From the IMG/VR virus record IMGVR_UViG_2802429246_000009: a DNA stretch of 30,945 nt; one strand, given 5' to 3'. Position 1 is the first letter of the stretch, and the number at the start of each line of letters is the position of its first letter. A model generated the notes under the pieces. That model did no database searches. It worked only from the letters and a program-made list of their open reading frames with translations, and was not told where the DNA came from. Origin of the DNA: a virus (Duplodnaviria; Heunggongvirae; Uroviricota; Caudoviricetes). Of this stretch, positions 1,958-29,964 are shown one piece after another. Made by a program: the position numbers and the translations under genes.

Positions 1958-4405
1958 TTAACCGTCATGCATCATGCTGGCACGGGCGCGCGCACGTTTA
2001 TCCCGCTCGTATTTTTCGAGCGCATCCTGTAACTGGCGGTCAAGCTGTGTCCCCGGCGCAGTACCACCCGTCAGGCTGATGTGATATTCGTTTTTACTCT
2101 GGTCTACATAAGAGCGGCCAGCCGGTGCCGTGACCGGCTGATAAGCCTGATAACCTGCATAAGAGCTGGTCGCCGGAATATAACCACCGCTGCCATACGT
2201 GGCGGCTTGAGTTCTGGCGGCGGTCTGGTCAAGTGTGTCTGACTCTTTGTTGATAACACCGAGTTTTTCCAGTACCCAGTCAATACCACTGCGCAGTTTG
2301 TTGAACGCATTAAGCGGCAGCATCAGCGCGTCAGCCAGTGCCTGCCCGAACATGACGCCCGTGTCACGGCAACGGTTCAGGGTGTCCTGGGTGGCTTTGA
2401 CCGGGGCAATCAGGTTTTTAAACCACTGCCACGCGGCCTGTAACTTTTCACCCAGCCAGTCAAACACCGGTTTAAGTGGCGTGAACAGTTCCCCCACTGG
2501 CGCAAATGCCGCTTTCAGCCCTTCCACCACACCGCCAAAGAATGCGCTGACAGGCTCCCAGTATTTACGGATAAGCAACGCCCCGGCGACAATGGCGGCC
2601 ACCACGGCCACAACCGGCCAGCTAATCGCCCCGATGGCGGTCATAACAGCACTGCCAACCGTCGTGAAGATTGCCCCCATTGCGCCTGCTGCCGCGATGA
2701 TGGCATTGATGCCGGTGATAACCGGCCAGGCTACAAGACCAATGGCACCGATGATGCCAATAAGCGCCAGCGCGCCACCGACAATGAGGCCGATGGTTGA
2801 CGCCAGTGATTTGTTTTTCTGGATCCAGCCGTCGAGTTTTAACACATACTTCGTGGCCGTCTGAGTGAGCTTACGCAGTGCGCCTTCCTGCTGGTCAAAC
2901 AGGTCAGTCCCCACCGCCTCATAAGCGGACTGAAACTCCTTAAAGTCACCGCCGAGGTTATCCTGCATGATATTTACCAGCTCTGCGGTCTTCCCGTCTG
3001 AGGCTTTCAGCGTAGCGGTCAGCGTATCCAGTTTTCCGCTTGCTGCCGCTGCCAGTAAAACGTTCGCTGATTTCAGGGCTTCCTCACCAAAAATGGTTTT
3101 AAGGTATTCCCCCTTCTGAGACGTTCCCAGCTTGTGTTTATCAAAGCTGACCTGAATCTCTTTCAGAATGGTGAACAACGGACGCATATTTCCCTTTTTG
3201 TCCGAGGTTTTAACGCCAAGCTCTTTTAGTGCTTCCCATGCTTTCCCTGTCGGAGCCTGTAATCGGGTGACAACGGCACTACTCCCCGTACCCGCCATTG
3301 ACCCCCTGATGTTATTGTCATGCAGCACACCTGTCATGGCCGCTGCCTGCTCAAGACTTACACCTGCCGTCCTCGCAACCGGACCGAGGTAAGTCAGTGC
3401 ATCACTGAGTCCCTGAAAATCAGCCGCCGACTTATTCATCGTTGCCGACAACACGTCGCCCACATGGCTGACATCATCATTTGACAGTTGAAAGGATGCC
3501 TTAGTCCCCAGCAACAGTTGCGCGTTTTCTTCCATCGACCGCTGATTCGCCAGTGCCATATTCAGCGTGACCGGCGTTGCCGCCTGAATAGCCGCAGCAT
3601 CTCCACCCGCTTTCGCAATGATAATCTGCGCACCGGCCGCATCATCCGCCGAGGCGGCTGTGTTGTCGCCGAGCTGGCGCGCCTGTTTGCGTAGCGCGGC
3701 CATTTCGGCGGAATCTTTTGCCACACCGAGCACGGCCTGCAATTCTGAGTTTTTCTGCGCAAACTCATAACCGGGCATCAGCAGCTTAACTCCGGCCATC
3801 GTTCCCGCCGCCGCAATCCCCACACCAGAAGCGCCCACCGAGGCCATATTTCCGGCCAGTTCCTTTCCGGCCTGATAACGCTGTTTTACTGCATTAAGTT
3901 TTGCCTGTTGTGCACTGACACGCGCCAGCGCGTCACGCTGCCGGTTAAGCTGTGCGGTGGTTTCACTGATACGGTTTTTCAGCCCTCGTTCATCATGCGC
4001 CAGATTACGGGTATTAATACCCGCCTGACTCAATTCCTGACGCTGGCGCTGTACCGACAATCTCAGGCTGTTATATTTCGCCTGTAACTCAGACGCATTT
4101 TTACGCGCGGCTTCCATTGCCTTTGCCTGTGCATTTGTCGGTCGTTCAGTATTTTTAAACTGGACAGCCAGAGCTGCGGCTTCCTGTCTGGCTTTTTTCA
4201 GTTCCTGACCAGTCACGGCGAGCTGTGCGCTGGTCTTGCGAAATCCCTCAATACGGGATGCCTGACCGTTCAGCTCGCGCAGTGATTTTTGTGTTTCCCG
4301 GATATCCCCCGACAGCGACTTGCTCGCTGTGCGGATGGATTTAAACGGGCGGGATGCCTGGTCAACAGCCCTGAGCAATACCTGTAATTTTACATTGTTA
4401 CTCAT
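1958..4405 (-). CDS. T: tail tape measure protein gpT
   Basis: 815 aa; Ala/Gly-rich hydrophobic central segment and coiled-coil-like N-terminal region typical of tape measure proteins; position after E/E'. Confidence 0.9.
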   Translation of the reverse strand: MSNNVKLQVLLRAVDQASRPFKSIRTASKSLSGDIRETQKSLRELNGQASRIEGFRKTSAQLAVTGQELKKARQEAAALAVQFKNTERPTNAQAKAMEAARKNASELQAKYNSLRLSVQRQRQELSQAGINTRNLAHDERGLKNRISETTAQLNRQRDALARVSAQQAKLNAVKQRYQAGKELAGNMASVGASGVGIAAAGTMAGVKLLMPGYEFAQKNSELQAVLGVAKDSAEMAALRKQARQLGDNTAASADDAAGAQIIIAKAGGDAAAIQAATPVTLNMALANQRSMEENAQLLLGTKASFQLSNDDVSHVGDVLSATMNKSAADFQGLSDALTYLGPVARTAGVSLEQAAAMTGVLHDNNIRGSMAGTGSSAVVTRLQAPTGKAWEALKELGVKTSDKKGNMRPLFTILKEIQVSFDKHKLGTSQKGEYLKTIFGEEALKSANVLLAAAASGKLDTLTATLKASDGKTAELVNIMQDNLGGDFKEFQSAYEAVGTDLFDQQEGALRKLTQTATKYVLKLDGWIQKNKSLASTIGLIVGGALALIGIIGAIGLVAWPVITGINAIIAAAGAMGAIFTTVGSAVMTAIGAISWPVVAVVAAIVAGALLIRKYWEPVSAFFGGVVEGLKAAFAPVGELFTPLKPVFDWLGEKLQAAWQWFKNLIAPVKATQDTLNRCRDTGVMFGQALADALMLPLNAFNKLRSGIDWVLEKLGVINKESDTLDQTAARTQAATYGSGGYIPATSSYAGYQAYQPVTAPAGRSYVDQSKNEYHISLTGGTAPGTQLDRQLQDALEKYERDKRARARASMMHDG

Positions 4406-4825
4406 TCGTGTTTCCGCTTCGCCGGAGCGCCTTTTCGCGCCATGTGATGAGTTCGGTCAGGCTCATGGGATACAGTTCTGATGGCGGCCAGTGAAATATC
4501 ACTGCCACATCCGCCATCAGGTCATCGACCGAGAGATTTTTCGGGAACGTCACTGCACCGAGTTCGGCGACAAAAAACCGACCACCTTACCGGCCAGCGC
4601 CACAAGGTCAGGCAGTTCCAGCGCGGCAACTTCCTGCTCGGTCAGCATCGGTGCCGTCATGCGCGGCAGCACCTTAATCAGTGCATCGACTTCGGAGTTC
4701 GCGACCGCAGCCAGACTGACACCGCGCAGCGTCCCGGCATTGGGTTTCATCAGCGTGACCTGTTCGATGACCTGCTCACCACGCTTGACCGGATTGTCCA
4801 GGGTAATCACATTTTCTTTGTTCAT
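4398..4825 (-). CDS. E': tail assembly chaperone gpE+E' (programmed -1 frameshift product)
   Basis: Hand translation of the -1 frame after the T-TTT-TTG slip site gives an open extension ...VAELGAVTFPKNLSVDDLMADVAVIFHWPPSELYPMSLTELITWAEKALRRSGNTNE ending at TAA 4398..4400 and overlapping the T start, as expected for P2 E+E'. Confidence 0.7.
4550..4825 (-). CDS. E: tail assembly chaperone gpE
   Basis: 91 aa ORF between FII and T; ends ...GKVVGFLSPNSVQ; contains the slippery site near its 3' end. Confidence 0.85.
   Translation of the reverse strand: MNKENVITLDNPVKRGEQVIEQVTLMKPNAGTLRGVSLAAVANSEVDALIKVLPRMTAPMLTEQEVAALELPDLVALAGKVVGFLSPNSVQ
4571..4577 (-). other. -1 ribosomal frameshift slippery heptamer TTTTTTG (E to E')
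   Basis: Minus-strand sequence GGT TTT TTG TCG (plus-strand caaaaaa at 4571..4577) near the 3' end of E; same heptamer class as the known P2 E/E' site. Confidence 0.65.
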
Positions 4826-4882
4826 GGTTTTCTCACTTCTGAATCGGGGGTTAACCGGTCAGCCTGGCTGACCGGATGAAAA

Positions 4883-5401
4883 TCACAGGCCGATATTGCG
4901 GCGGTGTTGCTCCAGACGGTCGACGCCGTTCACCTTCTCAATCATGTTGATGGTGTCGATTTCGACCAGCTCCTTACCGTCCATCGTCAACTTGAAATAA
5001 GTACAAATCACCGGGAGTTTCGATTCGGTATCCTCTCCCTGTTTACCCTCTCCGGTGTCGACTTCTTTCTGACGCCCACGCATGACCACTTCGACGGCCA
5101 CCGTTTCGCCGGTATCGTCGCGCTGGTAAGAACCAGCAAAACGAATCGGTACGGCATCAACACTGGTTGCAGCGTAAAGTTCCCAGATAACCGAATCCGG
5201 GAACCCCCCGAGCGACCACTCCATTGACAGCGCATCGTCATCAAGGCCGAGGTCTACCGGTGCGCTGCCGTTCATCCCCGCACCGCGATAATTTTCGAGC
5301 TTACGGGTCAGTTTTGGCAGCGTGACGGACGTTGCAACGCCCTGATAGCTGTAGCCGTTCAGAAAGACATTCATGTATTTGAGTTTGCGCGGCATTGCCA
5401 T
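4883..5401 (-). CDS. FII: tail tube protein gpFII
   Basis: 172 aa, directly downstream of the sheath gene; same length as P2 FII. Confidence 0.88.
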   Translation of the reverse strand: MAMPRKLKYMNVFLNGYSYQGVATSVTLPKLTRKLENYRGAGMNGSAPVDLGLDDDALSMEWSLGGFPDSVIWELYAATSVDAVPIRFAGSYQRDDTGETVAVEVVMRGRQKEVDTGEGKQGEDTESKLPVICTYFKLTMDGKELVEIDTINMIEKVNGVDRLEQHRRNIGL

Positions 5402-5413
5402 CGGTCAGGCTCC

Positions 5414-6604
5414 TTAATTGCTGTTAACCGAGGTGACCAGATTTGCCAGGTATTTATCAGTAATACGCTGGCGCAGGGTCAGGTTTTCAAGAGGAGGCAC
5501 CGGGGTATAGTCGTAGTCGATATACAGTTTTCCGGCCTTGAGGGTTTCCGCATCGTTGGATTCTTCGCTGAACCAGCAGGTCGCATCCACGATATAGCCG
5601 TTTGTTTTCAGCTCACGGAATTTGGCATTGATGCCGTCAACGATGTCGCGAATCAGCGTTGCGGTGATGGGTTTGTCCACCGCCCACATGTGCGCCTCAG
5701 CCATCGTGTCGGCCAACACCTGCGCGGTGCGGGTGTAGTTTTCAAAGAGGAACAGCGGGTCATCAGAGCAGGTACGGTTACCCCAGAAGCGGAAACCGTC
5801 ACGGCGAATCAGCGTAGTGACGCCTGACTCGTTAAGCAGGTCAGCATCGGTGCCGGACTCCTGCAAATCCCAGAATACAGATGCGCTGATGCCGGTAACA
5901 CCGTTCACCCCGACATTGGACAGCGTTTTATGCCAGCCCTGCTCCTGGTCGATTTTAGCGCGCAGGCCCAGTGCACGGGCGGTGGCATACGCGGTGGCGG
6001 TGGTACTGGTGACCGTATCCCATGCGAGGAAATCCGGCCAGATGACCATCAGCTCACGCTGACTGAAATTCTGGCGATAGGCTTTCACCTCGGAAATGGT
6101 CTTACAGCCCCATGCGCTGATATATCCGAAAGCGCGCAGCTTCTGACAGACTGATGCCAGTGCAACAGCCACCTCTTTGGTATCCAGCCCCGGCACACCA
6201 AGAATACGCGGTTTAACACCGGTTACCGACTCCGCCGCCAGCAGGGCTTTCAGTCCGGTGTACTGACCGTTTTCGTCAGTGGTGCCGATGATATTGGAAA
6301 CGGTCTGCGCGAGTTTCGTTTCCTCGTCGTCGCCGGTGCCGTCTTCCACACGTACGACAACGGTGACCGGTTTTGACTGGTCGGAGATGGCCTGCAACGA
6401 TGCCGCCAGCGTGCCTTTTTTACCGGCCTTTGCAATTGCGCTCTGCACATTGGTAATCAGTACCGGTTTATTGAGGGGGAAGGTTTCGACATCCGCATCG
6501 CTGGCCGTACAGACCATGCCGACAATGGCGGTGGATACGGTGGAAATGACGCGGGTGCCGTCGTTAATCTCCAGCACCTGCACACCGTGATGATAATCAC
6601 TCAT
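5414..6604 (-). CDS. FI: contractile tail sheath protein gpFI
   Basis: 396 aa, first gene of the F operon; same length and position as P2 FI. Confidence 0.9.
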   Translation of the reverse strand: MSDYHHGVQVLEINDGTRVISTVSTAIVGMVCTASDADVETFPLNKPVLITNVQSAIAKAGKKGTLAASLQAISDQSKPVTVVVRVEDGTGDDEETKLAQTVSNIIGTTDENGQYTGLKALLAAESVTGVKPRILGVPGLDTKEVAVALASVCQKLRAFGYISAWGCKTISEVKAYRQNFSQRELMVIWPDFLAWDTVTSTTATAYATARALGLRAKIDQEQGWHKTLSNVGVNGVTGISASVFWDLQESGTDADLLNESGVTTLIRRDGFRFWGNRTCSDDPLFLFENYTRTAQVLADTMAEAHMWAVDKPITATLIRDIVDGINAKFRELKTNGYIVDATCWFSEESNDAETLKAGKLYIDYDYTPVPPLENLTLRQRITDKYLANLVTSVNSN

Positions 6605-6708
6605 CCGTTTAACTCCGTGGTTAATGGGTGAGTGGTATTTTCAGTTGTACAGGGCGTGAGACGCTATTTGTCCTGACTGGTCAGGGGATGAAACAACAGA
6701 TAAAGAAA

Positions 6709-6729
6709 AGGCGGGCAATCCGCCCGCCT
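6709..6729 (-). terminator. putative rho-independent terminator downstream of G (end of V-G operon)
   Basis: Inverted repeat aggcggg / cccgcct with a 7-nt loop, followed on the minus strand by TTTTCTTTAT; sits 5 nt after the G stop. Confidence 0.5.
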
Positions 6730-6733
6730 GTAT

Positions 6734-7264
6734 TTATTGTGGTAGTTCCGGCCATTCAGGATTTGCAGGATCCACACGACTGACCAGAACGCTGTAGCGT
6801 TCCCATGCCTCCAGTCGGCTGCGCTCCTCATCTGTTGCCATATTCAGCCTGACCGCACGCTCCAGCGGCTGAATCAATGCCTCAGCTTCTGCAAGCAAGG
6901 TTGACTTTCGGACTTCGGCTTGCTGCTGCCGTTCTGCATCCGTATATACACGTTTAATTACAGTGTCATCTTTGAACATCCAGTTACCTGAAATATCAGC
7001 GCGACGGTTGGCGGTTATATTCGGTAACTCAACAACACTCAAGCCATCAGGGTTGAGCATTGACACATCTTTCTCAATGCAACGAATAATACCGTTCTCG
7101 TCGTAGGCCATTTTTAAAGTGTCTGGCTGGAAATTCTTTTGTTCCTCATACCAGTTTTTACCATCATCTGACCATAGCCAGACAATATTAAATCGTTTGG
7201 TTAATTCATATTGTTCAATAGTTTTTGGATTCCCTGCCTTAATATTTTTTAAATGCATCATCAT
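6734..7264 (-). CDS. G: tail fibre assembly protein gpG
   Basis: 176 aa immediately downstream of the tail fibre gene; start overlaps the H stop. Confidence 0.85.
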
Positions 7265-9786
7265 TAAATACTCCCTGCGTTATACCATGTGCCATTAATA
7301 CAATACTGAACAGGTCTTGCCTGCGCGATATCAATTAATTCATCAGTATTACTATTGACAACACCAGTAAGAACATGCCCTGACCTGTCATGCCAGCCAG
7401 TACCATTCCACGTTGGAAGGGATGACAAACCACCTAAGCGAATACCTGTAATAAAACGTGAATTACATTCCGCCTTGGTATAAGCGCCAATATCACCTGG
7501 CGATGGTTTATGAGCTGTCGTATAAATTTGCGCCCATCCAGACCATTGAGCATCATCTGTATCCCGCCTTGAACGGATATATGCTGGCGCGTAACCTCCA
7601 CTGGTGCCGCTCCAGCCGATAAGTAATTCACCTTCTCCAACTGCGGACACCCCCGTAAGATGAAGCACATTGCCATAGGTGTAAGGGTAGCCATTGTTAT
7701 ATGCCTCATACATCTGAATACCAGGCGTCCCCTTTGCACTCCCGCTTAATGCTGTGACGCGATTCCGGGATACCAGCGTATTAATATTTATATCGCCGGT
7801 GCCATCAAATTTGACACCATTAATATTTCGTGCCGTTTTCAGCTTTGTAGCTGTAGCAGCATTGCCGGACAGTTCGCCTGAAAGACCGGCGCTGAAGGTT
7901 TGTTTCGCCGCCCATGTCTGAGCTTCGTCGATAATTGGCACACGTCTTGTCGTGATCGTGCGGCTTCCCGGATTTCCTGAAATACGCACCATAAAAAAGC
8001 GGTAGTTCGCTTTACTTACAGTGCTGCGCCACACATGCATTGAGCGCCCCGTACCGGAATCATCACTCGGACCGACTGAGATGTTTATCAGGTTGCCATC
8101 AATGACGCCCCAGTCCATACCGTCGGGAATATTGGCCATGTTATCAAGCCGAACGGTTATCAGACTACCCGGCACAAAGTCGTAGGTCTGCCAGTCCAGA
8201 CTGGATAATTTTGCCACTGCGCCACCGATGCCCAGATTCAGAGGCAACGAAAAGGAGTTATATACTTCTCGCCATTCGGTCCATTTGCTCCCGGCGTAGA
8301 CGCGCTCAAAAGTGCGCCCCTGTGTGGTTTCTGATTTCCCTGTGGTTGTGTAACGCTGCCAGACAGACACACCATCAAAACGTCTGATTACTTCCAGTAT
8401 CCCAAGTAGTGTCGCGCCAACGGTGTCCAGCATCGGACCGTTTGTTGCCTTTCCTGTAACACTGTAAATACCGGGGTCGGTTAGAACATTTAAATCACCT
8501 TCGTAATAACGACTCTCTGACTGATGACCGACTCTTAACCACGGTTCCCACTGCGGATTTGATGCATCCCAGCTTGCCGCAAGGCAGCGGACATACATAT
8601 TTCCACGGCGAGTGGTATAACGTTGCGTTCTTCCATAATTCCCGCCTTCGAGGATCTCAAGCATCCCCTGAGCAAAGCCGCCTTCCTCTGGATAATTGCG
8701 TTCATAGGAAGCTATAGCCGAGCTACTGTTACGCCATAAACCAAGATGTTCGGCGGCTCCAAGCGTATTCAGGTCTATAGTCGTACTCAAAGGGCGGGTA
8801 GCTGATTGAGTGTGACGCCATACGCCCCACGGACCATCAGTGCCATTCCACTTATTGGCGAGTTTACGCATGTATACATTGCCGTCTCTTGTGGTAAAGC
8901 GTTGCGTGCCTGCAAAATTGCCGGCAGCAAAAACCTCAAGCACACCGACAGCATTATCTTCCGGGAAATTTTTCTCCAGTGTTGCGTTAGTTGAAGTAGC
9001 TTTAGACCAGATCCCCAGATAAGCCTTAACGGGACCAAATGTATTCAGATCAGCATCAACCGGCATTTCGCCGTTGTTTTTCATAAACGTCAGGCTGGTA
9101 ACGCCAACATTGTCCAGAAAAGCTGATTTATCCTGGATATCTGCACCATTCTGATTTTTCGCCAGACGTGAATTTGCGTTGTCATTTGCTGCCTTGACCG
9201 CTTTTGGCGTTGCCGCCAGCTTTTCACTGGTGCTGTTTGTTGCACTGCTTAACTGAGTAAAGCCTTTTTCCGTCAGCGTGGCGTCAGGATGGCGGCGGGA
9301 CTGCTCATGCTCTGCGATTTTGTCATCGACGTAATCCTGCGTCGCCATCACTGTGCTGGCATCAATACTCAGCTCAACGGACGCCACGTTGCTGAGAATA
9401 ATAACCATGCGGCAGGTCTGCGCACGTCCGGAGCCTTCAGCCAGTTCTGGCTTATAGCTTTCTGCCATGTTGGATACCGCAATCAGTGTTCCGGCATCGT
9501 CATACAGACCAAGCTCACGCATCCAGAAGCCGCCCACTTCGGGCGGTACAACCAGTTCAGCCACGATATAGTTTTTATTCTTGTTATCCACGCTGACTTT
9601 ATTCAGAGCGTGACGCCAGACCTCATGCACCAGTTTCGTCTGACCGGCATCCGGCACCGGTAATTTGCCATTACCGTCACCCACGGCCATTGCAGACAGG
9701 TTTACTTTTTTCCCGCCGGGGACAGTGGCGGCTGCCAGCTTCGCGGCTCCGGCAGTAGTGATAACGGTTTTAAATTTCGTGCTCAT
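7264..9786 (-). CDS. H: tail fibre protein gpH (extended, repeat-containing C-terminal region)
   Basis: 840 aa; N-terminus [40 protein letters not shown]... matches my recollection of P2 H; longer than P2 H (about 669 aa as I recall), with three tandem internal repeats. Confidence 0.85.
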
Positions 9787-15751: not shown

Positions 15752-16495
15752 TTAACTGGCTTTCTTTTTCGGGCGTCCACGTTTTGCCGGTGTCACGCTC
15801 CGGGTCTTACGTGGGGCGCGGGTGGCCGCTTTGGGCTGCGGCTCCGGCTTCGGTTTCAGCTCCCGCTCCAGTCGTTCAATCTCTTTTTTGACGCCTGCCT
15901 GACAGTCGAGCTGTGTCGCACGTTGCAGGTGAGCCAGCGCACCGGCGGCATCACCAGCGTCACGCAGAAACAGACCGGTGATTTTGTGCAGCTTTGCGCG
16001 CACTTCATCAGGCATGTCAGCCGTGGCGGTCAGTTCAAGGGTCTCCGTCAGCAGGCGGGGATCCACAGACTCACCGGCAGCGTGAGCGCGCATGGCCGCA
16101 AGCGCCACCTCCTCGGTGAACATGTACGGCGGGGTGCGGCGGTGTTTACCCGGCATGGTCAGACCGTACTTCAGGGCATAACGGGCAATCTCCAGCGCAC
16201 CGGCAATATCGCCGGTATCCAGACGCCACAGCATGACCGTCATCAGAATGTCATCCTGTGCACCTTTGCCCTGCTCCAGCACGCCGTTCACCCACGGCAA
16301 CCAGAACGGCAGCAGTTCGCGCTTTTTCGCGGCCTTCAGCTCTTTTGAATAAATCGCTTTCAGTGTGCGCTGGTCTGCGGCCAGCTTGACCAGCATCTGC
16401 TCATAGACAGTTGCATGTCGCAGCGGGGCGGCTTCCCGCTGCGCGGTCATCGCTGCCGAGACCCGCATCATGTGGCGCTGTGCGGGACTCGTCAT
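15752..16495 (-). CDS. M: terminase endonuclease/small subunit gpM
   Basis: 247 aa, position and length as P2 M; basic C-terminal tail. Confidence 0.88.
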   Translation of the reverse strand: MTSPAQRHMMRVSAAMTAQREAAPLRHATVYEQMLVKLAADQRTLKAIYSKELKAAKKRELLPFWLPWVNGVLEQGKGAQDDILMTVMLWRLDTGDIAGALEIARYALKYGLTMPGKHRRTPPYMFTEEVALAAMRAHAAGESVDPRLLTETLELTATADMPDEVRAKLHKITGLFLRDAGDAAGALAHLQRATQLDCQAGVKKEIERLERELKPKPEPQPKAATRAPRKTRSVTPAKRGRPKKKAS

Positions 16496-18485: not shown

Positions 18486-18658
18486 TGTCAGGAGTCCTGA
18501 ATAGTGATTAGAGGAGTCACATGTCGGCATCAGTTTCCCGACGATGCGCATCCTCCGCCATCAGTCCCGGATGGCTTATCACTGACACAACAGCACCTTA
18601 GCGAATCGCGGGGCGCGACTCAGTAGCCTTGCCGTGTATTCATCACGGCGAGGTATTC
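18486..18658. promoter_or_regulatory. divergent late promoter region between O and P (expected PO/PP)
   Basis: 173-bp gap between the divergently transcribed O and P genes, where P2 carries its Ogr-dependent late promoters; promoter elements not mapped. Confidence 0.5.
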
Positions 18659-20431
18659 ATGACCATCACCACAGACACCACTCTTTTACACGACCCGCGT
18701 CGTCAGGCGGCGCTGCTGTACTGGCAGGGGTTTTCCGTGCCGCAGATTGCCGCCATGTTGCAGATGAAACGCCCGACGGTGCAGAGCTGGAAACAGCGCG
18801 ACGGCTGGGACAGTGTTGCCCCCATCAGCCGTGTCGAAATGAGTCTGGAAGCGCGGCTGACCCAGCTCATCATCAAACCGCAGAAAACCGGCGGTGACTT
18901 CAAGGAAATTGACCTGCTGGGACGCCAGATTGAACGACTGGCACGGGTCAACCGCTACAGCCAGACCGGCAACGAGGCAGACCTTAATCCGAACGTCGCT
19001 AACCGCAACAAAGGCGGGCGGCGCAAACCGAAAAAGAATTTTTTCAGTGACGAGGCCATCGAAAAGCTGGAGCAGATTTTCTTTGAGCAGTCTTTCGACT
19101 ATCAGTTGCACTGGTATCGTGCCGGGCTTGAGCACCGCATCCGCGATATCCTGAAATCCCGCCAGATTGGCGCAACGTTTTATTTTTCCCGCGAGGCGCT
19201 GCTGCGCGCCCTGAAAACCGGCCATAACCAGATTTTTCTGTCGGCCAGTAAAACGCAGGCGTATGTGTTCCGCGAATACATCATCGCCTTTGCCCGGCTG
19301 GTTGACGTTGACCTGACCGGTGACCCGATTGTCCTGGGCAATAACGGCGCAAAACTGATTTTTCTCGGCACCAACTCCAACACCGCGCAGAGCCATAATG
19401 GCGACCTGTACGTCGACGAGATTTTCTGGATCCCGAATTTTCAGGTACTGCGTAAGGTGGCATCAGGTATGGCCTCACAGAGTCACCTGCGCTCGACCTA
19501 TTTCTCCACCCCGTCCACGCTGGCGCACGACGCCTACCCGTTCTGGTCGGGTGAACTGTTCAACCGGGGACGCGCCAGCGCCGCCGAACGCGTGGAAATC
19601 GACGTCAGTCATAACGCCCTTGCCGGTGGGCTTCTCTGTGCGGACGGTCAGTGGCGGCAGATTGTCACCATTGAGGATGCGCTGAAAGGCGGCTGCACGC
19701 TGTTCGACATTGAGCAGCTCAAACGCGAAAACAGCGCCGATGATTTTAAAAATCTGTTCATGTGTGAATTTGTTGACGACAAGGCGTCGGTGTTCCCGTT
19801 CGAGGAGCTGCAACGCTGCATGGTCGACACGCTGGAAGAATGGGAAGACTATGCGCCGTTTGCCGCCAATCCGTTCGGCTCCCGCCCGGTATGGATTGGC
19901 TACGACCCGTCACACCGTGGCGACAGTGCCGGATGCGTGGTGCTGGCACCGCCGGTGGTGGCCGGTGGCAAATTCAGAATACTTGAGCGTCACCAGTGGA
20001 AAGGCATGGACTTTGCCACCCAGGCTGAATCCATCCGCAAACTCACCGAAAAATACAACGTCGAATACATCGGTATTGATGCCACCGGCCTCGGTGTCGG
20101 CGTATTCCAGCTCGTGCGCTCGTTCTATCCCGCCGCGCGCGATATCCGCTACACGCCGGAAATGAAAACCGCAATGGTGCTCAAGGCAAAAGACGTTATC
20201 CGCCGTGGCTGTCTGGAATATGACGTCAGCGCCACCGACATCACCAGCTCGTTCATGGCTATCCGCAAGACCATGACCAGCAGCGGACGCAGCGCCACCT
20301 ATGAGGCCAGCCGCAGCGAGGAAGCCAGCCACGCCGACCTCGCCTGGGCGACCATGCACGCCCTGTTAAATGAGCCACTCACCGCCGGTATCAGCACTCC
20401 GCTGACATCCACCATTCTGGAGTTTTACTGA
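18659..20431 (+). CDS. P: terminase ATPase/large subunit gpP
   Basis: 590-aa product from ATG at 18659 (MTITTDTTLLHDPRRQ...) with a GAGGT RBS; length matches P2 P. Confidence 0.9.
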   Translation: MTITTDTTLLHDPRRQAALLYWQGFSVPQIAAMLQMKRPTVQSWKQRDGWDSVAPISRVEMSLEARLTQLIIKPQKTGGDFKEIDLLGRQIERLARVNRYSQTGNEADLNPNVANRNKGGRRKPKKNFFSDEAIEKLEQIFFEQSFDYQLHWYRAGLEHRIRDILKSRQIGATFYFSREALLRALKTGHNQIFLSASKTQAYVFREYIIAFARLVDVDLTGDPIVLGNNGAKLIFLGTNSNTAQSHNGDLYVDEIFWIPNFQVLRKVASGMASQSHLRSTYFSTPSTLAHDAYPFWSGELFNRGRASAAERVEIDVSHNALAGGLLCADGQWRQIVTIEDALKGGCTLFDIEQLKRENSADDFKNLFMCEFVDDKASVFPFEELQRCMVDTLEEWEDYAPFAANPFGSRPVWIGYDPSHRGDSAGCVVLAPPVVAGGKFRILERHQWKGMDFATQAESIRKLTEKYNVEYIGIDATGLGVGVFQLVRSFYPAARDIRYTPEMKTAMVLKAKDVIRRGCLEYDVSATDITSSFMAIRKTMTSSGRSATYEASRSEEASHADLAWATMHALLNEPLTAGISTPLTSTILEFY

Positions 20432-21465
20432 TGAGCAAGAAAAAAGGGAAAACACCGCAACCTGCGACAAAAACAATGACCGCCAGCGCCCCGAAAATGG
20501 AGGCATTCACCTTTGGTGAGCCGGTGCCGGTACTCGACCGCCGTGACATTCTGGATTACGTCGAGTGCATCAGTAACGGCAGATGGTATGAGCCACCGGT
20601 CAGCTTTACCGGTCTGGCAAAAAGCCTGCGTGCTGCCGTGCATCACAGCTCACCGATTTACGTCAAACGCAATATTCTGGCTTCAACGTTTATCCCGCAC
20701 CCGTGGCTTTCCCAGCAGGATTTCAGCCGCTTTGTGCTGGATTTTCTGGTGTTCGGTAATGCGTTTCTGGAAAAGCGTTACAGCACCACCGGTAAGGTCA
20801 TCAGACTGGAAACCTCACCGGCAAAATATACCCGCCGTGGCGTGGAAGAGGATGTTTACTGGTGGGTGCCGTCCTTCCATGAGCCGACAGCCTTCGCGCC
20901 CGGCTCCGTGTTTCACCTGCTGGAGCCGGATATTAATCAGGAGCTGTACGGCCTGCCGGAATATCTCAGCGCCCTTAACTCTGCCTGGCTGAATGAGTCA
21001 GCCACGCTGTTCCGCCGCAAGTATTACGAAAACGGCGCACATGCCGGATACATCATGTACGTCACTGATGCCGTGCAGGATCGCAATGATATCGAAATGC
21101 TCCGCGAAAACATGGTGAAGTCGAAAGGCCGCAACAACTTTAAAAATCTGTTTCTCTATGCCCCGCAGGGGAAAGCCGACGGCATTAAAATTATCCCGCT
21201 CAGTGAAGTGGCAACGAAGGACGATTTTTTTAATATCAAAAAAGCCAGCGCCGCTGACCTGCTGGACGCGCACCGTATCCCCTTTCAGTTGATGGGCGGC
21301 AAGCCGGAGAACGTCGGGTCGCTGGGTGATATTGAAAAAGTGGCAAAGGTCTTTGTCCGCAATGAGCTTATCCCGCTACAGGACAGGATTCGGGAAATAA
21401 ACGGCTGGCTCGGCCAGGAGGTCATCCGCTTTAAAAACTACTCACTGGAGACTGACAACGGCTGA
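20431..21465 (+). CDS. Q: portal protein gpQ
   Basis: 344 aa; start overlaps the P stop (TGATG); length and position as P2 Q. Confidence 0.9.
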   Translation: MSKKKGKTPQPATKTMTASAPKMEAFTFGEPVPVLDRRDILDYVECISNGRWYEPPVSFTGLAKSLRAAVHHSSPIYVKRNILASTFIPHPWLSQQDFSRFVLDFLVFGNAFLEKRYSTTGKVIRLETSPAKYTRRGVEEDVYWWVPSFHEPTAFAPGSVFHLLEPDINQELYGLPEYLSALNSAWLNESATLFRRKYYENGAHAGYIMYVTDAVQDRNDIEMLRENMVKSKGRNNFKNLFLYAPQGKADGIKIIPLSEVATKDDFFNIKKASAADLLDAHRIPFQLMGGKPENVGSLGDIEKVAKVFVRNELIPLQDRIREINGWLGQEVIRFKNYSLETDNG

Positions 21466-21470
21466 ACATC

Positions 21471-21492
21471 GCCGCCTGCGGGCGGCTTTTTT
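21471..21492 (+). terminator. rho-independent terminator after Q
   Basis: GC hairpin gccgcc-tgcg-ggcggc followed by TTTTTT, 6 nt after the Q stop. Confidence 0.65.
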
Positions 21493-21634
21493 ACACCCCG
21501 CCATCACGCCCTCACACGCTCATCACCGCACAAAAAATCCCGCAGACACACCAACGCCCCGGCGCACAATCTAAACGCCATCACGACGCGCTCAGACGCT
21601 GAAAAAATAAAATCAGCACCACCGCCAGCGCGCA

Positions 21635-21653
21635 GTGCTTTCCCCGCCTCGCC
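21635..21653. other. cos: cos site (19-nt cohesive end sequence)
   Basis: gtgctttccccgcctcgcc is the reverse complement of GGCGAGGCGGGGAAAGCAC, which I recall as the P2 cohesive end; located between Q and the old/tin-equivalent locus as in P2. Confidence 0.75.
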
Positions 21654-21777
21654 CGCCCGCTTCGTAGGGCGGTTTTAATGCAAATGCATTCTGGTTCCAT
21701 GCATTTTGATGGCAATAATATACGCACAAAATTTATCGGACATAACGTATGCATTTTCATGCACCGTCATGCCCCCC

Positions 21778-21836
21778 TTGACAATCCCATGATTTTTTAG
21801 AGCAAGCTTGCATTCCATACTGTCAAAACACATTAT
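21778..21836 (+). promoter_or_regulatory. putative sigma70-like promoter of the cargo operon
   Basis: TTGACA at 21778..21783 and TTGCAT (21808..21813) with a 17-nt spacer to CATTAT (21831..21836), about 30 nt upstream of the RBS; weak match, position uncertain. Confidence 0.3.
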
Positions 21837-21867
21837 ATACTTGGGCTTTTTATACAAGGACTTAAAC

Positions 21868-23568
21868 ATGTTAACAAAATTCTCAGGAAAAAATTACAAA
21901 GCATTTAAGGATTTCTCGTTCGAGATTAAGCCTATAACGGTGTTATTAGGAGCAAATAGCTGTGGAAAAAGCGCACTTATCAATTCACTTTTGATGTTTT
22001 CACAAACAGCAGAAACAATAAACATTTCCGAATCAGCACTAAGATTAAATGGAAATAAGGTTGGCATGGGGGAATCTCTGAATATCATCAGAGAAAAAAA
22101 CCCCAAAAACACCTTAAGTTTTTCATTTGAAATATCAAACCAACAATCCTTGCGATACGACATTCACAAAAGCAAGCGAGATTTTATTGACTTCTATTTT
22201 TCACTTGCCAGATATTTGGGACAAGTATTAAAAAGTGCGGCATCAACAACACCCAGCAGTGATTTGATGAACAATAGTTTTAATGACACGTTAAAAACTA
22301 TTGATAAAATCGAATCAAACTATATGTTTAGAGACACTTACAACTCTGCACAACTTAAAGCCATTTCTGATGGTGTTTGCGAATTATTATCAAAATACAG
22401 ACAACTACCTGAGGATGTTGCAAAAAAATCCCGTCCACATCTCGATCGACTAGCAGAGTTTGTTAATATTGTTTCTTTCGAAAACATTCAAAGCAGCTTA
22501 ATGTCATTAGCATCTCTTAGTGCAAAAAAAATATCCCCCAAACGAATTGATTATGATTTTTGCTTTGATAAAAAATCAAACCAACTAAAAATAACCGGGT
22601 GCGCTTTTCATAATCACTTAGGCGAATGCATCACCAGCTTGGGTATATCTAAAGGGAAATTCTTTTTACGCTCTGACGTTATTAAAAGAACTCACTTAAG
22701 CAAATCCCGAGAAGAGATATCGAAACTAATCAATTTCAATTCACTATCCCTTATAGATGAAATTCAAAACGTTAATTTCATTGACAAACACATTGTGTCC
22801 CTTGACCCATTCGCTAGTTTATTCTGCAACTATCTTGAGAAGCTAACAAAAGCATTTATCTCTGAGTTTAATGGTGTAAAAATAAATCATGTCAGCCCAT
22901 TAAGGGCATTCCCTCAACGCTACTATCTTTTAGACAAGTCTATACAGCATACTTTTCTTAATGTTCTGGAAGGTAATGAACTGGCTGAGGTGTTAAAGAA
23001 AAATCCAGAAATAAAAAATAAAATTAATATTTTACTGGCAAAGTTCAATCTTGAAGTAGATGTCGTCATGGTTAATGACATCATTCATAAGATCAACATC
23101 ACCCAAGATTCCATCTCTCTAGAGTTAACAGATGTAGGTTTTGGCATATCTCAGGTTTTACCTATTTTGGTTCAAGCTTATTTGTCCCCTAAAAATTCCA
23201 TCACTATTATAGAACAACCAGAAATTCACTTACACCCCAAAATGCAAGCATGGCTCACTGATGCTTTAATTCACATTGCATTAAAAGAGAAAAAAAGATT
23301 TATTATTGAAACTCACAGTGACGCTCTAATCAGAAGAATCAGATTGCGTATTGTTGATACTAAATCGAGCCTTACACCAAATGATGTAATGCTTTGCAAT
23401 CTTGAAAGAAAATCTGAAGATAATGTCACTAGTTTAAAAGTGATTCCTATTACCGAGGATGGAGATATAACTTGGCCTGCGGATTTTTTAGACATTGAAA
23501 TTCAAGACACACTTCAAATCCAGAATTTTAAAGTTAAAAAACATCTTAAAAATAAAGGTCTGTTATAA
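21868..23568 (+). CDS. ABC-type (OLD/AAA_15/AAA_21-like) ATPase, candidate defence ATPase; no TOPRIM domain
   Basis: 566 aa from ATG 21868 (AAGGA RBS 7 nt upstream; the ORF-track start at 21808 is TTG). Walker A GANSCGKS about 21949..21972; signature-like LTDVGFGISQVLPIL; Walker B/D-loop ITIIEQPEIHLHP about 23200..23238; H-loop FIIETHSD. Only about 70 aa follow the H-loop. Confidence 0.8.
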   Translation: MLTKFSGKNYKAFKDFSFEIKPITVLLGANSCGKSALINSLLMFSQTAETINISESALRLNGNKVGMGESLNIIREKNPKNTLSFSFEISNQQSLRYDIHKSKRDFIDFYFSLARYLGQVLKSAASTTPSSDLMNNSFNDTLKTIDKIESNYMFRDTYNSAQLKAISDGVCELLSKYRQLPEDVAKKSRPHLDRLAEFVNIVSFENIQSSLMSLASLSAKKISPKRIDYDFCFDKKSNQLKITGCAFHNHLGECITSLGISKGKFFLRSDVIKRTHLSKSREEISKLINFNSLSLIDEIQNVNFIDKHIVSLDPFASLFCNYLEKLTKAFISEFNGVKINHVSPLRAFPQRYYLLDKSIQHTFLNVLEGNELAEVLKKNPEIKNKINILLAKFNLEVDVVMVNDIIHKINITQDSISLELTDVGFGISQVLPILVQAYLSPKNSITIIEQPEIHLHPKMQAWLTDALIHIALKEKKRFIIETHSDALIRRIRLRIVDTKSSLTPNDVMLCNLERKSEDNVTSLKVIPITEDGDITWPADFLDIEIQDTLQIQNFKVKKHLKNKGLL

Positions 23569-24570
23569 ATGTTTTACACTCATTGTATAAGCCCTGAATT
23601 CATGGGGCTTCACATCAAAAATATGGACACTTTTATTTCGATTTTTATGGGTGTTTTAATGAATCCGCAGAACCAGATCGTTTTAGATGAGGCAGGAATA
23701 ATTGAACAACAATATTTATTAAGTCTTAATAACGACAAATCAGCTTTTTTGCTCTACCAAACTTGGGAGAAAGCCATAAAATCAGACAGTTGCCAAGGTA
23801 AACTATTACTTTCTTCTCCCAATATATCATCTTCAATACATGATTATGTAGTTTCAGCTATTTCATGTGCTATAACCACAAACGACAAAACAATATTAAC
23901 TGCTGATAACAATTTGTACAGCGCGGCTTTACCTATTTTATCCAGACAAAAAATTCACTTACTGGGAATAAGTCATCTAACCCCTCAATCATCAGCAAGC
24001 ATTATAGGTAAACATATGTCTTTTACAAAACTTGATTATGATATTGCCTGGTCTCTAGAGAGATTGGTTCGGCTTCATCGAAAAGGGAACACAGAGGATG
24101 ACTTAAATGACTTACTCCGTGAATACTTGCTTGCGAAGGAATACGAGATAAAAGACCAAACTCGTGAAGGCATATCTACAAGTGGAAAGAGCGCCGGAGA
24201 ACTTGATATTATTGTTGAGCACAACTCAAACATGTTTGCAATATTAGAAGCAATGAAGCTTAGTCAGATAAACAAGGAGTATATCACCATTCATTACAAA
24301 AAAATGCTTGTCAATTACAACCCTCTGGACGTAAAGAGATTATTCCTCATTACTTATTACGATGGAAAAAAATTCGATACCTGGTGGGATAACTACGTTG
24401 AATTTGTAAAAAGTATAGACTACACCACATTAAACCCTGAAGTCGAAAACACAACATTTGTTAACACAGAAAAGATTAACACGAACTTTGGGAATGTAAA
24501 AAAAATGCTACACCACGGCCTGGCTAATGGTGAACAATTTTCCGTCATACATTATGCAGTAAAACTGTAA
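23569..24570 (+). CDS. hypothetical protein, partner of the ATPase (possible effector/nuclease; unassigned)
   Basis: 333 aa; ATG immediately follows the gene-1 TAA (TAAATG), AAAGG about 10 nt upstream; AT-rich codon usage like gene 1. Start codon choice is uncertain (other in-frame Met at residues 12, 19, 27, 31). Confidence 0.7.
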   Translation: MFYTHCISPEFMGLHIKNMDTFISIFMGVLMNPQNQIVLDEAGIIEQQYLLSLNNDKSAFLLYQTWEKAIKSDSCQGKLLLSSPNISSSIHDYVVSAISCAITTNDKTILTADNNLYSAALPILSRQKIHLLGISHLTPQSSASIIGKHMSFTKLDYDIAWSLERLVRLHRKGNTEDDLNDLLREYLLAKEYEIKDQTREGISTSGKSAGELDIIVEHNSNMFAILEAMKLSQINKEYITIHYKKMLVNYNPLDVKRLFLITYYDGKKFDTWWDNYVEFVKSIDYTTLNPEVENTTFVNTEKINTNFGNVKKMLHHGLANGEQFSVIHYAVKL

Positions 24571-24871: not shown

Positions 24872-27160
24872 TCATAAATTCCATTCGGATACTGTTGAAT
24901 AACCAAGCCACTCATCAGCGACCGGATACGTGAATTTTTTCCCGTCATAATTTACGGTCGCGCCACGCGCCAGCGCCTCAAGCTCCCATCGCTGCGGCCT
25001 GATACCGTTCTGAGCAAGGTCAACGCGGATACGGGTAATTTGCAATCGTTCCGACCGGGTCAGCCTGGCTGATGGCGCTATTTCATGCGGTTTTAACGGG
25101 CTTCCGTTTCTTTGCTGACGATTTGGTGTTCTCAGTCCGTGTTTTAATGCACCTCTGAGCGCCCTCATAACCTCCGGATCATTCCATTCGATAACACCGT
25201 CATCAACCAGATTAAGCACTGCTGCGGCGTGCTCAGAAGGTGTGGGAGCCGGTAACGAAGCATCACCGCCGGTGAGCTTTCCACAGTTATTGACAGGACT
25301 CCGAGGCGCGGCGATGCCGCTTTTTAAAGTCAAAGGCTCAACGACCGGAACTTTCGGCACAATGCGCCAGTCCGTCGTTCTGGTGATATGAATATGACGC
25401 GCGCCGAGATGCGGCGCGTAAATGCCGACCACTCTCTCGACTTCTTCCTCGTACTCGTTAACTTCATCCGACGGACTACGGGCAACCCTGACAGTCTGAC
25501 AATCGCGCGGAACATTTGCCCCACCCTGCGCGCTGATATACAACGCAAAATCACCACTGTCTGCGGCAGCGCGTGCAGCCTCGACGCGTTCGTCAAACTC
25601 ATCAGCAATGCTGACGCCGCGAGGCAATTTGCGTAGTTCACGGTAAGCCCCCATTGTCGGCAGGCCAACCGTTTTAAATTGCGGAATGCGCCACGTTGAC
25701 GCCCATGCGGTAACAGCCGCGGCAGTGTCTTTCAGCGGCCTGCCGGTATCGTTATCGAGCTGACCATCCAGTGCATAGCCGTCGATATTTTTCGAAATGT
25801 ATTTCGCGATATATCCCGCAGCACCGCCCCGGTTAAGGTGTTTTGCCTGAAAACGGTTTCGCGCGGCTCCTCTTTCGTCGCCATCCTCTTTGAGCGCATA
25901 GCGACGCATGATTTCGATAATCTGGTTACGCTGGCGTGGATTACAAAAAAGCATCATATGCCAGTGCGGCGTTCCGTCGTGGTGTGGCTCGACGACTCGC
26001 AAACCGTAGACCTGTAAATCATTATCCTTGAATGCCGTGCGCATCAGGCTCCAGATACGGCAGAGATAACGCTGCGCATCCTTTGGATTAAATGCCTCAT
26101 CGTTCCAGCCGTGATTTAGCTGGACGGTTTTACTTTCGCCTTTTCTGACCTGACGTGTCGGGTGATACTTTGACGGCGCGGTCAGCGTGATAAACATCCC
26201 CACATCACCCTCTGCGGCGGCGTAACGCTCAATACCGGCGATGGTGTTCATCAGCTCCATCCGGCGAATTTCTGGATTAGAAATACTGCCCATCACCTTA
26301 CTGATAAGGTCGATGCGCTCGCCGGTTTCCCTGTTCTCAAGGTCACACGATTTAAGAAATTCCAGATTTGCCTGGCGGCGCGCACGCACATCACGAATGG
26401 CATGTTTACTGGCATAAGGAGAACGGTCTTTATTGACCTCCCCGACAGCAATCAGTAACGCCTCATGCCAGCGCATACGCTGGCCTTTAAGCTGATGAGT
26501 CCACCACTCATCGTTAAACAGGCGGGCAATGGCAGAATATGCCTGCCTCGTGGTCATCTGCCCTTTACGGTATTTTTTCCAGTAAAGCGGGGAAATATTG
26601 AAAGCACGTGCAGCGCCAGCAACATGACCATACAGATGTGCCTGCGCCTCATCCGTAAACAGCGATTCTTTTTCGCCATGCGCATCCACCCAGGCATCGC
26701 AGAGTTCCTCATACATCATGAAAAGCTGCGATGAGATACGGGCAGCAAACTTTTTCAGCTCCTTGTCATTCATTCCCGGCAGGCGCGCATAGTGGTCACG
26801 CTCTGCCAGAAACAGCAACGACGCGTCGGTGTTCATTTCATGGCGCTGATTCACACGCTCAATGCGCGGCCATAAACGACGCTGAAAAGTGGATGTGAGG
26901 AAATAAACCCCGTGCACCGGGCTTTTATTGCGCCGGATGTAGTCATAGCGTGAAGTAAACAGCGAGCGCAAAAAGTAAGGCAGGCGGTTAATCGTGGATA
27001 AAACACCTTGCACCTGACGCATCTCGTCACGTGTAAGGGGTCTTTCGCGCCCGACAGCCTCGCGTGGCGCGTTCCATGCATAAGCACCGGTAAACGCCTT
27101 ACCGGTGCCTGTGGCAAATGCTGACGGAGGGACAAAACGCCCGGAGGCTTTAACGGTCAT
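24872..27160 (-). CDS. A: replication initiation protein gpA (rolling-circle nickase)
   Basis: About 762 aa from ATG at 27160 (MTVKASGRFVPPSAF...); the ORF-track start at 27202 is TTG. Size and position as P2 A. Confidence 0.85.
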   Translation of the reverse strand: MTVKASGRFVPPSAFATGTGKAFTGAYAWNAPREAVGRERPLTRDEMRQVQGVLSTINRLPYFLRSLFTSRYDYIRRNKSPVHGVYFLTSTFQRRLWPRIERVNQRHEMNTDASLLFLAERDHYARLPGMNDKELKKFAARISSQLFMMYEELCDAWVDAHGEKESLFTDEAQAHLYGHVAGAARAFNISPLYWKKYRKGQMTTRQAYSAIARLFNDEWWTHQLKGQRMRWHEALLIAVGEVNKDRSPYASKHAIRDVRARRQANLEFLKSCDLENRETGERIDLISKVMGSISNPEIRRMELMNTIAGIERYAAAEGDVGMFITLTAPSKYHPTRQVRKGESKTVQLNHGWNDEAFNPKDAQRYLCRIWSLMRTAFKDNDLQVYGLRVVEPHHDGTPHWHMMLFCNPRQRNQIIEIMRRYALKEDGDERGAARNRFQAKHLNRGGAAGYIAKYISKNIDGYALDGQLDNDTGRPLKDTAAAVTAWASTWRIPQFKTVGLPTMGAYRELRKLPRGVSIADEFDERVEAARAAADSGDFALYISAQGGANVPRDCQTVRVARSPSDEVNEYEEEVERVVGIYAPHLGARHIHITRTTDWRIVPKVPVVEPLTLKSGIAAPRSPVNNCGKLTGGDASLPAPTPSEHAAAVLNLVDDGVIEWNDPEVMRALRGALKHGLRTPNRQQRNGSPLKPHEIAPSARLTRSERLQITRIRVDLAQNGIRPQRWELEALARGATVNYDGKKFTYPVADEWLGYSTVSEWNL

Positions 27161-27425
27161 GTGAGCCAAAAGCCTCTGAACAACGCTTGCTGAGTTGCTC
27201 AACCTGCGCGTTTAAATCAGCAAAAGATTTTGCGCTTCCGGTCAGAATATCGTGATGCATCATGCCGGAAACGAGCTGGCTTAATTTCGGGTAATAACCA
27301 ACCACCGCCAGCCATTCCTGGCCGGCGTTTTTACCGCTTTCCGCTCTCTTTTTCTCGTGGAGAATAAACTGAAAGCTGTCACTGGTAACGACATAACGTT
27401 CGCCAATTTCGATACGAATACTCAT
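27150..27425 (-). CDS. hypothetical early protein (P2 orf83 position)
   Basis: 91-aa ORF tightly packed between the zinc-finger ORF and A; no recognisable motif. Confidence 0.5.
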   Translation of the reverse strand: MSIRIEIGERYVVTSDSFQFILHEKKRAESGKNAGQEWLAVVGYYPKLSQLVSGMMHHDILTGSAKSFADLNAQVEQLSKRCSEAFGSHDR

Positions 27426-29558: not shown

Positions 29559-29852
29559 ATGAAAATATCGGAGAAACTTCGCGCAATCCGCAAAGCAGAG
29601 GGATTAACGCAAAAAAAATTTTGCGAACTTAGCGGATTAGCACTTAGCTCATTGAAAAATTACGAAGGGGGACATAAAGAGCCTGGACTACAAATCGTAA
29701 AGCAAGTGGTAAACACGCCTCTGTTTAAAAAATATACACTGTGGATTATGACAGATGAGGTTGCGCCAGAAGCCGGGCAGATTTCCCCGGTCGTCGCACA
29801 CTCTGGGCAAGAAGAAACAACCTCGTCACACTCAGACCGCAAAACTGGCTAA
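29559..29852 (+). CDS. C: immunity repressor C (HTH)
   Basis: 97 aa; N-terminal HTH (ISEKLRAIRKAEGLTQKKFCELSGL) and C-terminal ...FKKYTLWIMTDEVAPEAGQISPVVAHSGQEETTSSHS... resembling P2 C as I recall it; AAGGGA RBS. Confidence 0.8.
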   Translation: MKISEKLRAIRKAEGLTQKKFCELSGLALSSLKNYEGGHKEPGLQIVKQVVNTPLFKKYTLWIMTDEVAPEAGQISPVVAHSGQEETTSSHSDRKTG

Positions 29853-29964
29853 CTATTTACCGAAATTACATGCACATAAAATGCATGTTACTGGTAAAAA
29901 AATATTCACCACACAACCATAAAGGGTCAAACAACAAGAAAACACGTGCTCATCGGAGGGCTTT

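Follow-up and report, generated by a model that had tools for sequence, protein, structure and literature searches.

Phage P2 packages its DNA from monomeric circles, and P2 and P4, which are otherwise unrelated, are packaged by the same terminase. In phage lambda, cosB comprises the R3, R2 and R1 sites of gpNu1 together with the IHF site I1. For P2, the minimal functional cos is said, after work by Ziermann and Calendar in 1990, to measure about 125 bp. P2 and P4 have a 55-bp cos core in common (PMC5694545, PMC9594776), and the regions flanking cos affect the efficiency of cosmid transduction (PMC5694545, PMC9594776, PMC9122126). Additionally, a cos-adjacent defence hotspot has been described in P2 and P4, with cos as its conserved border (Rousset et al., 2022; PMC9122126). 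Our literature search, which covered accessible full texts, led only to the statement on the 55-bp core and to nothing on the ATGCA boxes presented here.

The DNA analysed is the IMG/VR record IMGVR_UViG_2802429246_000009 over its 30,945 nt (the window). Next to its cohesive end it bears a set of short ATGCA boxes, which very probably form part of the P2-type cos packaging signal.

Gene Order and Position of cos

The window is a P2-like prophage in the reverse orientation of the standard P2 map. The following landmarks were annotated:

15752-16495, small terminase subunit gpM (PF05944)
18629-20431, terminase large subunit P (gpP), with N-terminal Terminase_5/HTH_23 domains
20431-21465, portal gene Q (Phage_portal)
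21471-21486, Q terminator
21580..21634, left flank of cos, moderately conserved among P2-like phages in the conservation profile
21635..21653, 19-nt P2-type cohesive end (cos nicking region), GTGCTTTCCCCGCCTCGCC
21653..21676, plus strand, GC-rich hairpin and T-run (CCGCCCGCTTCGTAGGGCGG TTTT), abutting the cohesive end within the conserved cos core
21868-24570, cargo of two genes with low GC (~34%)
24872-27202, minus strand, replication gene A (Phage_GPA)

The cohesive end GTGCTTTCCCCGCCTCGCC is the reverse complement of P2 GGCGAGGCGGGGAAAGCAC and identical to the annotated cosL/cosR of NC_001895. It is established between Q and gene A with its accessory hotspot, in a P2-like gene order, which is the location of cos in the P2 family; the cargo occupies the cos-adjacent hotspot in which P2 itself carries old and tin. 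For box positions, +1 is the base directly following the cohesive end (21654). Compared with P2-like phages, the window presents 94-97% identity over 21560-21689, and BLAST homology stops at 21689. Contiguous similarity between P2 and P4 is limited to about -7 to +29 (right end about +26 to +29), a block that matches the 55-bp core of the literature and is present in the window; in the same P2/P4 comparison, only the last ~7 bp of the left flank (GCGCGCA) are common to P4. The GC-rich hairpin, which was picked up by a terminator-like scan, is common to P2 and P4 and has a high information content across 92 cos regions.

Concerning the large terminase subunit, the N-terminal region of gpP harbors a helix-turn-helix of the homeodomain-like kind at residues ~22-79 (Terminase_5, HTH_23, HTH_28), and gpP itself could thus contribute to sequence-specific recognition of cos.

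ATGCA Boxes in the Window

The earlier note had described the DNA between cos and the cargo as an AT-rich leader with repeated ATGCATT(TT) motifs. ATGCATT is indeed found on the plus strand at 21684-21690, 21699-21705 and 21749-21755, with a palindromic partner on the minus strand at 21683-21689, and the 9-mer ATGCATTTT occurs twice, at 21699-21707 and 21749-21757; with the cohesive end confirmed at 21635-21653, the distances given from cos to the motifs were correct as well. The repeat unit itself had to be revised. It is the 5-mer ATGCA, of which two copies had been missed (21678-21682 and 21759-21763), together with a degenerate ATGCC at 21769-21773. Boxes of the window are thereby located at +25, +31/+32, +46, +96 and +106, with the degenerate one at +116:

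21677..21690, proximal box pair AATGCAAATGCATT, with ATGCA at 21678 (+25) and inverted TGCAT at 21685 (+32)
21690..21748, spacer from proximal to distal boxes, of varying sequence and low information content, 59-60 bp in length
21699..21707, plus strand, extra copy of ATGCATTTT (+46) inside the variable 60-bp spacer
21749..21763, plus strand, distal boxes D1 and D2 ATGCATTTTCATGCA, ATGCA at +96 and +106, exactly 10 bp apart
21769..21773, plus strand, degenerate third distal box D3, ATGCC (+116), one mismatch, 10 bp past D2

The first ATGCATT of the earlier note (21684-21690) overlaps the inverted box at +32, just past the ATGCA at +25, with which the classical 55-bp core ends on the right. The third (21749) is D1, with D2 at 21759. 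The repetition of the 9-mer is a coincidence between one real box, followed here by T4 and in most relatives by A4, and one incidental copy.

Chance repetition in AT-rich DNA would agree with the count of ATGCATT over the whole window, which is unremarkable (8 observed, 7.5 expected), and with a further 9-mer at 29878, which brings ATGCATTTT to 3 observed against 0.77 expected, a number of at least 3 being reached in 5/100 shuffles. Locally, however, 5000 dinucleotide-preserving shuffles of 21654-21867 gave 1.86 ± 1.43 copies of ATGCA plus TGCAT, against 9 observed (P = 2e-4, about five-fold), and 0.27 copies of ATGCATT on both strands, against 4 observed (P = 8e-4). The clustering of motifs in 21654-21867 is not due to chance. 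Moreover, the box positions are conserved across 81 flanks and three reference genomes, as described below, and chance is hardly credible as an explanation of the boxes at 21678, 21685, 21749 and 21759. Only for the 21699 copy is chance, or drift within the lineage, the preferred interpretation.

The third exact ATGCATTTT lies on the minus strand at 29878-29886, in the intergenic region between a C repressor-like ORF (29559-29852) and the integrase ORF (29965 onward), and is probably a chance occurrence, with 0.77 expected per window.

Conservation of the Boxes in P2-Type cos Flanks

An alignment against the cos flanks of other P2-like phages, which the earlier note had proposed as the way to separate packaging from regulation, was carried out. 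A total of 120 IMG/VR loci were collected with an 18-nt cos core as the sole probe, oriented like the window, and reduced to 81-82 right flanks of <85% mutual identity. The boxes were found as follows:

P1 (ATGCA), at +25: exact in 77/81, with at most one mismatch in 81/81
Proximal inverted box (TGCAT; labelled 'P2 box'), at +32: exact in 54/81, with at most one mismatch in 76/81
D1 (ATGCA), at +96 to +98 (nominal position +97): exact in 68/81, with at most one mismatch in 78/81
D2 (ATGCA), at +106 to +108 (nominal position +107): exact in 64/81, with at most one mismatch in 80/81
D3 (ATGCA), at +113 to +123, 9-13 bp past D2: exact in 48/81, with at most one mismatch in 71/81

In all 54 of the 54 flanks with both an exact D1 and an exact D2, the distance between the two is exactly 10 bp, and a control window at +150 contained no exact box in any of the 81 flanks. 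Variant boxes such as ACGCA or TTGCG are found, for example, in three of the loci. The motif is also one-sided, as ATGCA/TGCAT occurs 5.06 times per 200 nt on the right of cos and 0.06 times per 220 nt on the left. In the information-content profile of the 92 cos regions the boxes stand out as sharp peaks within otherwise unconserved DNA. The surveyed flanks precede cargo of widely differing size, with gene A lying 0.7 to 5.7 kb off, and the surveyed loci include 19 P4-like satellites with psu/sid/delta homologues and without a Q gene. The boxes are thus kept regardless of cargo, an outcome that favours the packaging side of the proposed comparison. The combination derived in this analysis, namely boxes at +25, ~+97 and ~+107 that are confined to the right arm, is present in the window.

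A search in the reverse direction was performed with the box pattern alone (AATGCANNTGCAT, 52-68 nt, ATGCANNNNNATGCA) in 185,579 species, with one genome each. It yielded 100 matches, 89 of which have a P2-type cos core at most 50 nt upstream and belong nearly all to Enterobacterales; the remaining matches are scattered over unrelated phyla. The spacer measures exactly 60 nt in 83/89 of the cos-linked matches, compared to 59 nt in the window.

The middle copy of the motif behaves differently. Any ATGCA between +40 and +88 is found in only 5% of 82 flanks, and the 21699 copy is absent from IMG/VR 3300009036_000518, a relative with the same cargo. Consequently, the option of the earlier note that the repeats belong to cos stands for the first and third copies, which are cos elements and, to judge from their conservation, most likely terminase recognition sites, and falls for the one at 21699, which is probably lineage-specific and not functional.

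Many members of the family also have a GC-rich dyad in the middle of the spacer, at ~+50 to +68, reading CGCCAG..CTGGCG (e.g., in 186) or CCGCGCC..GGCGCGG (in P4). It is absent from the window (equivalent 21703-21721) and from reference P2, and is therefore not essential.

Reference Phages and Distant Relatives

The reference genomes of P2 (NC_001895), 186 (NC_001317) and P4 (NC_001609) all bear ATGCA at +25, +97, +107 and +119/120. The inverted TGCAT at +32 is dispensable, since it is missing in reference P2. Past the contiguous block of the core, the similarity between P2 and P4 is confined to D1/D2 (+96 to +113) and D3, whose coordinates agree in the two. The neighbours of the boxes differ in these three genomes: in P4 they abut the conserved psu, with the variable gop cargo on the opposite side of cos, while 186 tum/orf97 is transcribed toward cos and P2 old away from it. 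As the layout is nevertheless shared by P2, 186 and P4, the boxes track cos and not the cargo or its orientation.

The window resembles the cos of P2, 186 and P4 in its identical 19-nt cohesive end, the hairpin, the ATGCA at +25, ~+97 and ~+107 and the location between Q and the hotspot on the side of gene A. It differs from them in a spacer of 59 instead of 60 nt, which is AT-rich and holds the extra ATGCA (+46), in a second, overlapping ATGCA at +31, in T4 instead of A4 after D1 and in the degenerate D3.

Pseudomonas phage φCTX (NC_003278) has the same positional layout with another word, CTGC(A/G), at +25, +34, +80, +96 and +106 from the cohesive end, and its record annotates repeats R4-R6 across cos. 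The boxes at +25, +34, +96 and +106 thus correspond to the window, unlike the additional box at +80, the box sequence and the 21-nt length of the cohesive end. In Haemophilus phage HP1 (NC_001697), TTCCGTG occurs three times within 110 nt of the right end. A word that varies by phage genus within a constant layout is what would be expected of sites read by a co-evolving phage protein.

Relation of the Boxes to the Cargo

Another option of the earlier note was that the repeats are operator or promoter elements of the adjacent cargo (defence) operon. Their place 105-190 bp upstream of the ATPase start would suit such a role, the D3 of P2 overlaps the inferred -35 element of the old-tin promoter, and the cargo is usually inherited together with spacer and distal boxes. 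On the other hand, the boxes at 21678/21685 and 21749/21759 keep motif, orientation and distance from cos in ~80 flanks with unrelated cargo, so that the same boxes stand at the same offsets before dozens of unrelated cargos and in both cargo orientations, and those of P4 lie beside psu with the cargo across cos. Sites specific to this cargo were not found, as the boxes are universal across cargos, and the sole copy specific to the cargo lineage (21699) is the one not kept in 3300009036_000518. The module, consisting of the ATPase and a 333-aa protein without a Pfam or PADLOC match, holds no regulator gene, and no sigma-70-like promoter on the plus strand overlaps the boxes. The operator option was rejected on these grounds and we regard it as very unlikely. 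As judged from conservation, 21654 to ~21775 forms the right arm of cos rather than a regulatory leader; the description as an AT-rich leader upstream of the cargo operon applies only to ~21774-21867, the first ~125 bp being cos.

The ATPase-carrying relative 3300009036_000518 (4514-7456 of the locus) has the same two-gene cargo, with 93% and 89% amino-acid identity, and is a 186-type phage with a 186-type cos core, ATGCTTTCCCCGCCACGCC. It retains D1 and D2. It follows that the cassette, together with its spacer and distal boxes, was transferred between phages of the P2 type and of the 186 type. Among pairs of loci, 51 combine a similar spacer with a similar cargo, six a similar spacer with a different cargo and seven a different spacer with a similar cargo. 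The DNA carrying the spacer and distal boxes is thus usually inherited or exchanged with the cargo, while the boxes themselves are universal. The earlier note had set repeats conserved regardless of cargo, as a sign of packaging, against repeats travelling with the cargo, as a sign of regulation. This alternative is too simple, because the sequence lineage travels with the cargo and the motif does not.

The locus agrees with the hotspot of Rousset et al. (2022; PMC9122126) in that its cargo lies between cos and gene A and that conserved cos-proximal sequence borders variable DNA. In contrast to the view of cos as the border, the break in similarity often falls inside cos (after +36), so that the cargo is usually accompanied by its spacer and distal boxes. 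From this it may be proposed, tentatively and as a possibility rather than a probability, that the packaging signal of P2, 186 and P4 (and, with another box sequence, of φCTX) is bipartite, its distal half lying outside the 55-bp core and usually being exchanged along with the neighbouring defence cassette. In that case, every cassette would bring its own half of the packaging signal, and the recombination breakpoints of the hotspot would lie inside cos.

Proposed Recognition of cos

In our proposal, the boxes serve the P2 terminase as sequence-specific recognition sites, as an analogue of lambda cosB, and we consider it probable, from their arrangement and conservation, that the terminase itself reads them. 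The site would consist of the inverted pair at +25/+32 and the phased direct array at +96/+106/(+116), separated by a spacer of free sequence and fixed length (59-60 bp). Binding on one face of the helix, with the DNA bent or wrapped between the clusters, is suggested by the strict phasing of D1/D2 at 10 bp and by the constant length of the 60-bp spacer. The candidate reading subunit would be gpM, or the helix-turn-helix at the N-terminus of gpP. If both clusters were bound, with the 60-bp spacer between them bent or wrapped, the gpP nuclease would come to lie on the cohesive end 25 bp away and the DNA would be marked for packaging. P4 satellites, by copying the box array, would be packaged by the terminase of their helper. 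A functional cos that includes the distal boxes is suggested by their conservation and by the minimal cos of ~125 bp reported for P2, which would fit a site reaching that far. The likeness to lambda cosB may be drawn in outline, as short repeats on one side of the nicking site, over ~100 bp, presumably read by terminase with bending of the DNA; there is no sequence relation between the two, and the repeat unit, number and geometry differ.

The boxes could also be part of cos and yet be read by something other than the terminase, such as a host DNA-bending protein, or the distal boxes could serve mainly as a terminator or insulator shielding cos from read-through. The latter finds some support in many P4-like satellites, where D2/D3 form a hairpin (GCCATGCA...TGCATGGC) followed by T6, and the GC-rich dyad in the spacer of many members also speaks for such readings. 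However, the window, reference P2 and many others keep the boxes without a D2/D3 hairpin or T-run, and the exact 10-bp phasing of the direct repeats and the genus-dependent motif (φCTX, HP1) point to a phage-encoded reader. Concerning a host factor, a by-eye reading found no match to the IHF-type consensus WATCAANNNNTTR in the spacer of the window or of P2. Both variants are improbable and less likely than recognition by the terminase; secondary transcriptional roles of the distal boxes are possible.

The boxes are an ordinary conserved feature of a long-known element. Only the precise bipartite geometry and the co-transfer with defence cassettes are possibly new, and the geometry, if undescribed, would offer a testable model of recognition by the P2 terminase and of satellite mimicry. 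For annotation, the ~120 bp after the cohesive end of P2-like prophages should be assigned to cos and not to a promoter or operator of the defence cargo, and this arm should be left intact in cassette swaps and in the design of cos cosmids. The boxes at fixed offsets are also a very specific signature for locating cos sites of the P2/P4 type and their defence hotspots, with 89 of the 100 pattern matches being genuine cos.

Cargo Genes and Expression Signals

The features assigned to the cargo and its leader are:

21807..21838, plus strand, best-conserved leader block CTTGCATTCCATACTGTCAAAACACATTATAT, in which 4/32 positions differ between the window and 3300009036_000518, the flanking leader having diverged
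21808-21813 and 21831-21836, plus strand, candidate promoter TTGCAT, 17-nt spacer, CATTAT, with 7/12 consensus positions
21856-21860, plus strand, ribosome-binding site AAGGA of the ATPase (ATG at 21868-21870), read from the sequence
21868-23568, ATPase ORF of 566 aa, AAA_15 / NsnB-like

The start codon of the ATPase is at 21868, not at 21869. In PADLOC this protein matched best to NsnB, the Menshen-system ATPase (E = 3e-52), and more weakly to AriA. No NsnA-like ParB/DUF262 gene is present in the cargo (21868-24570), which is therefore not a canonical three-gene Menshen system. The cargo is rare, being detected in 5/5426 complete E. coli genomes and two IMG/VR contigs, all adjoining cos; none of these seven carriers has it outside the cos context.

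The truly cargo-specific leader covers ~21774-21867, and the expression signals of the cargo itself lie further on than the boxes, at ~21800-21867. TTGCAT-N17-CATTAT is a weak candidate for the cargo promoter, read from the sequence, and was not reported by the sigma-70 scan, which gave no plus-strand promoter in the leader (21654-21867). As a promoter element, TTGACA at 21778 was discarded, as it lacks a -10 partner and is not retained in 3300009036_000518. A minus-strand ORF at 21675-21869 (64 aa) is spurious, with stop codons in every frame in 3300009036_000518. Known RNA families were not found in 21300-22100, where the sole match was a meaningless sub-threshold snoRNA.

In P2, the annotated old-tin transcript starts are at +149/+151. 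A -35 hexamer TTGAAT, deduced from these starts, overlaps D3 in the stretch +113 to +121 from cos (2453-2461 of the locus taken from NC_001895); cross-talk is conceivable, in which packaging proteins would compete with old/tin transcription for this DNA of P2.

The five E. coli matches present 98.0-98.8% identity to the window. In Escherichia ruysiae NZ_CABVLQ010000001 (~5300-5600 of the locus), the cos flank and leader are essentially identical to the window over the compared stretch. Finally, in E. coli O25:NM (NZ_CP024228) the annotation splits the ATPase gene into two overlapping CDS (4214-4897 and 4866-5915 of the locus), and the gene is probably frameshifted and inactivated.
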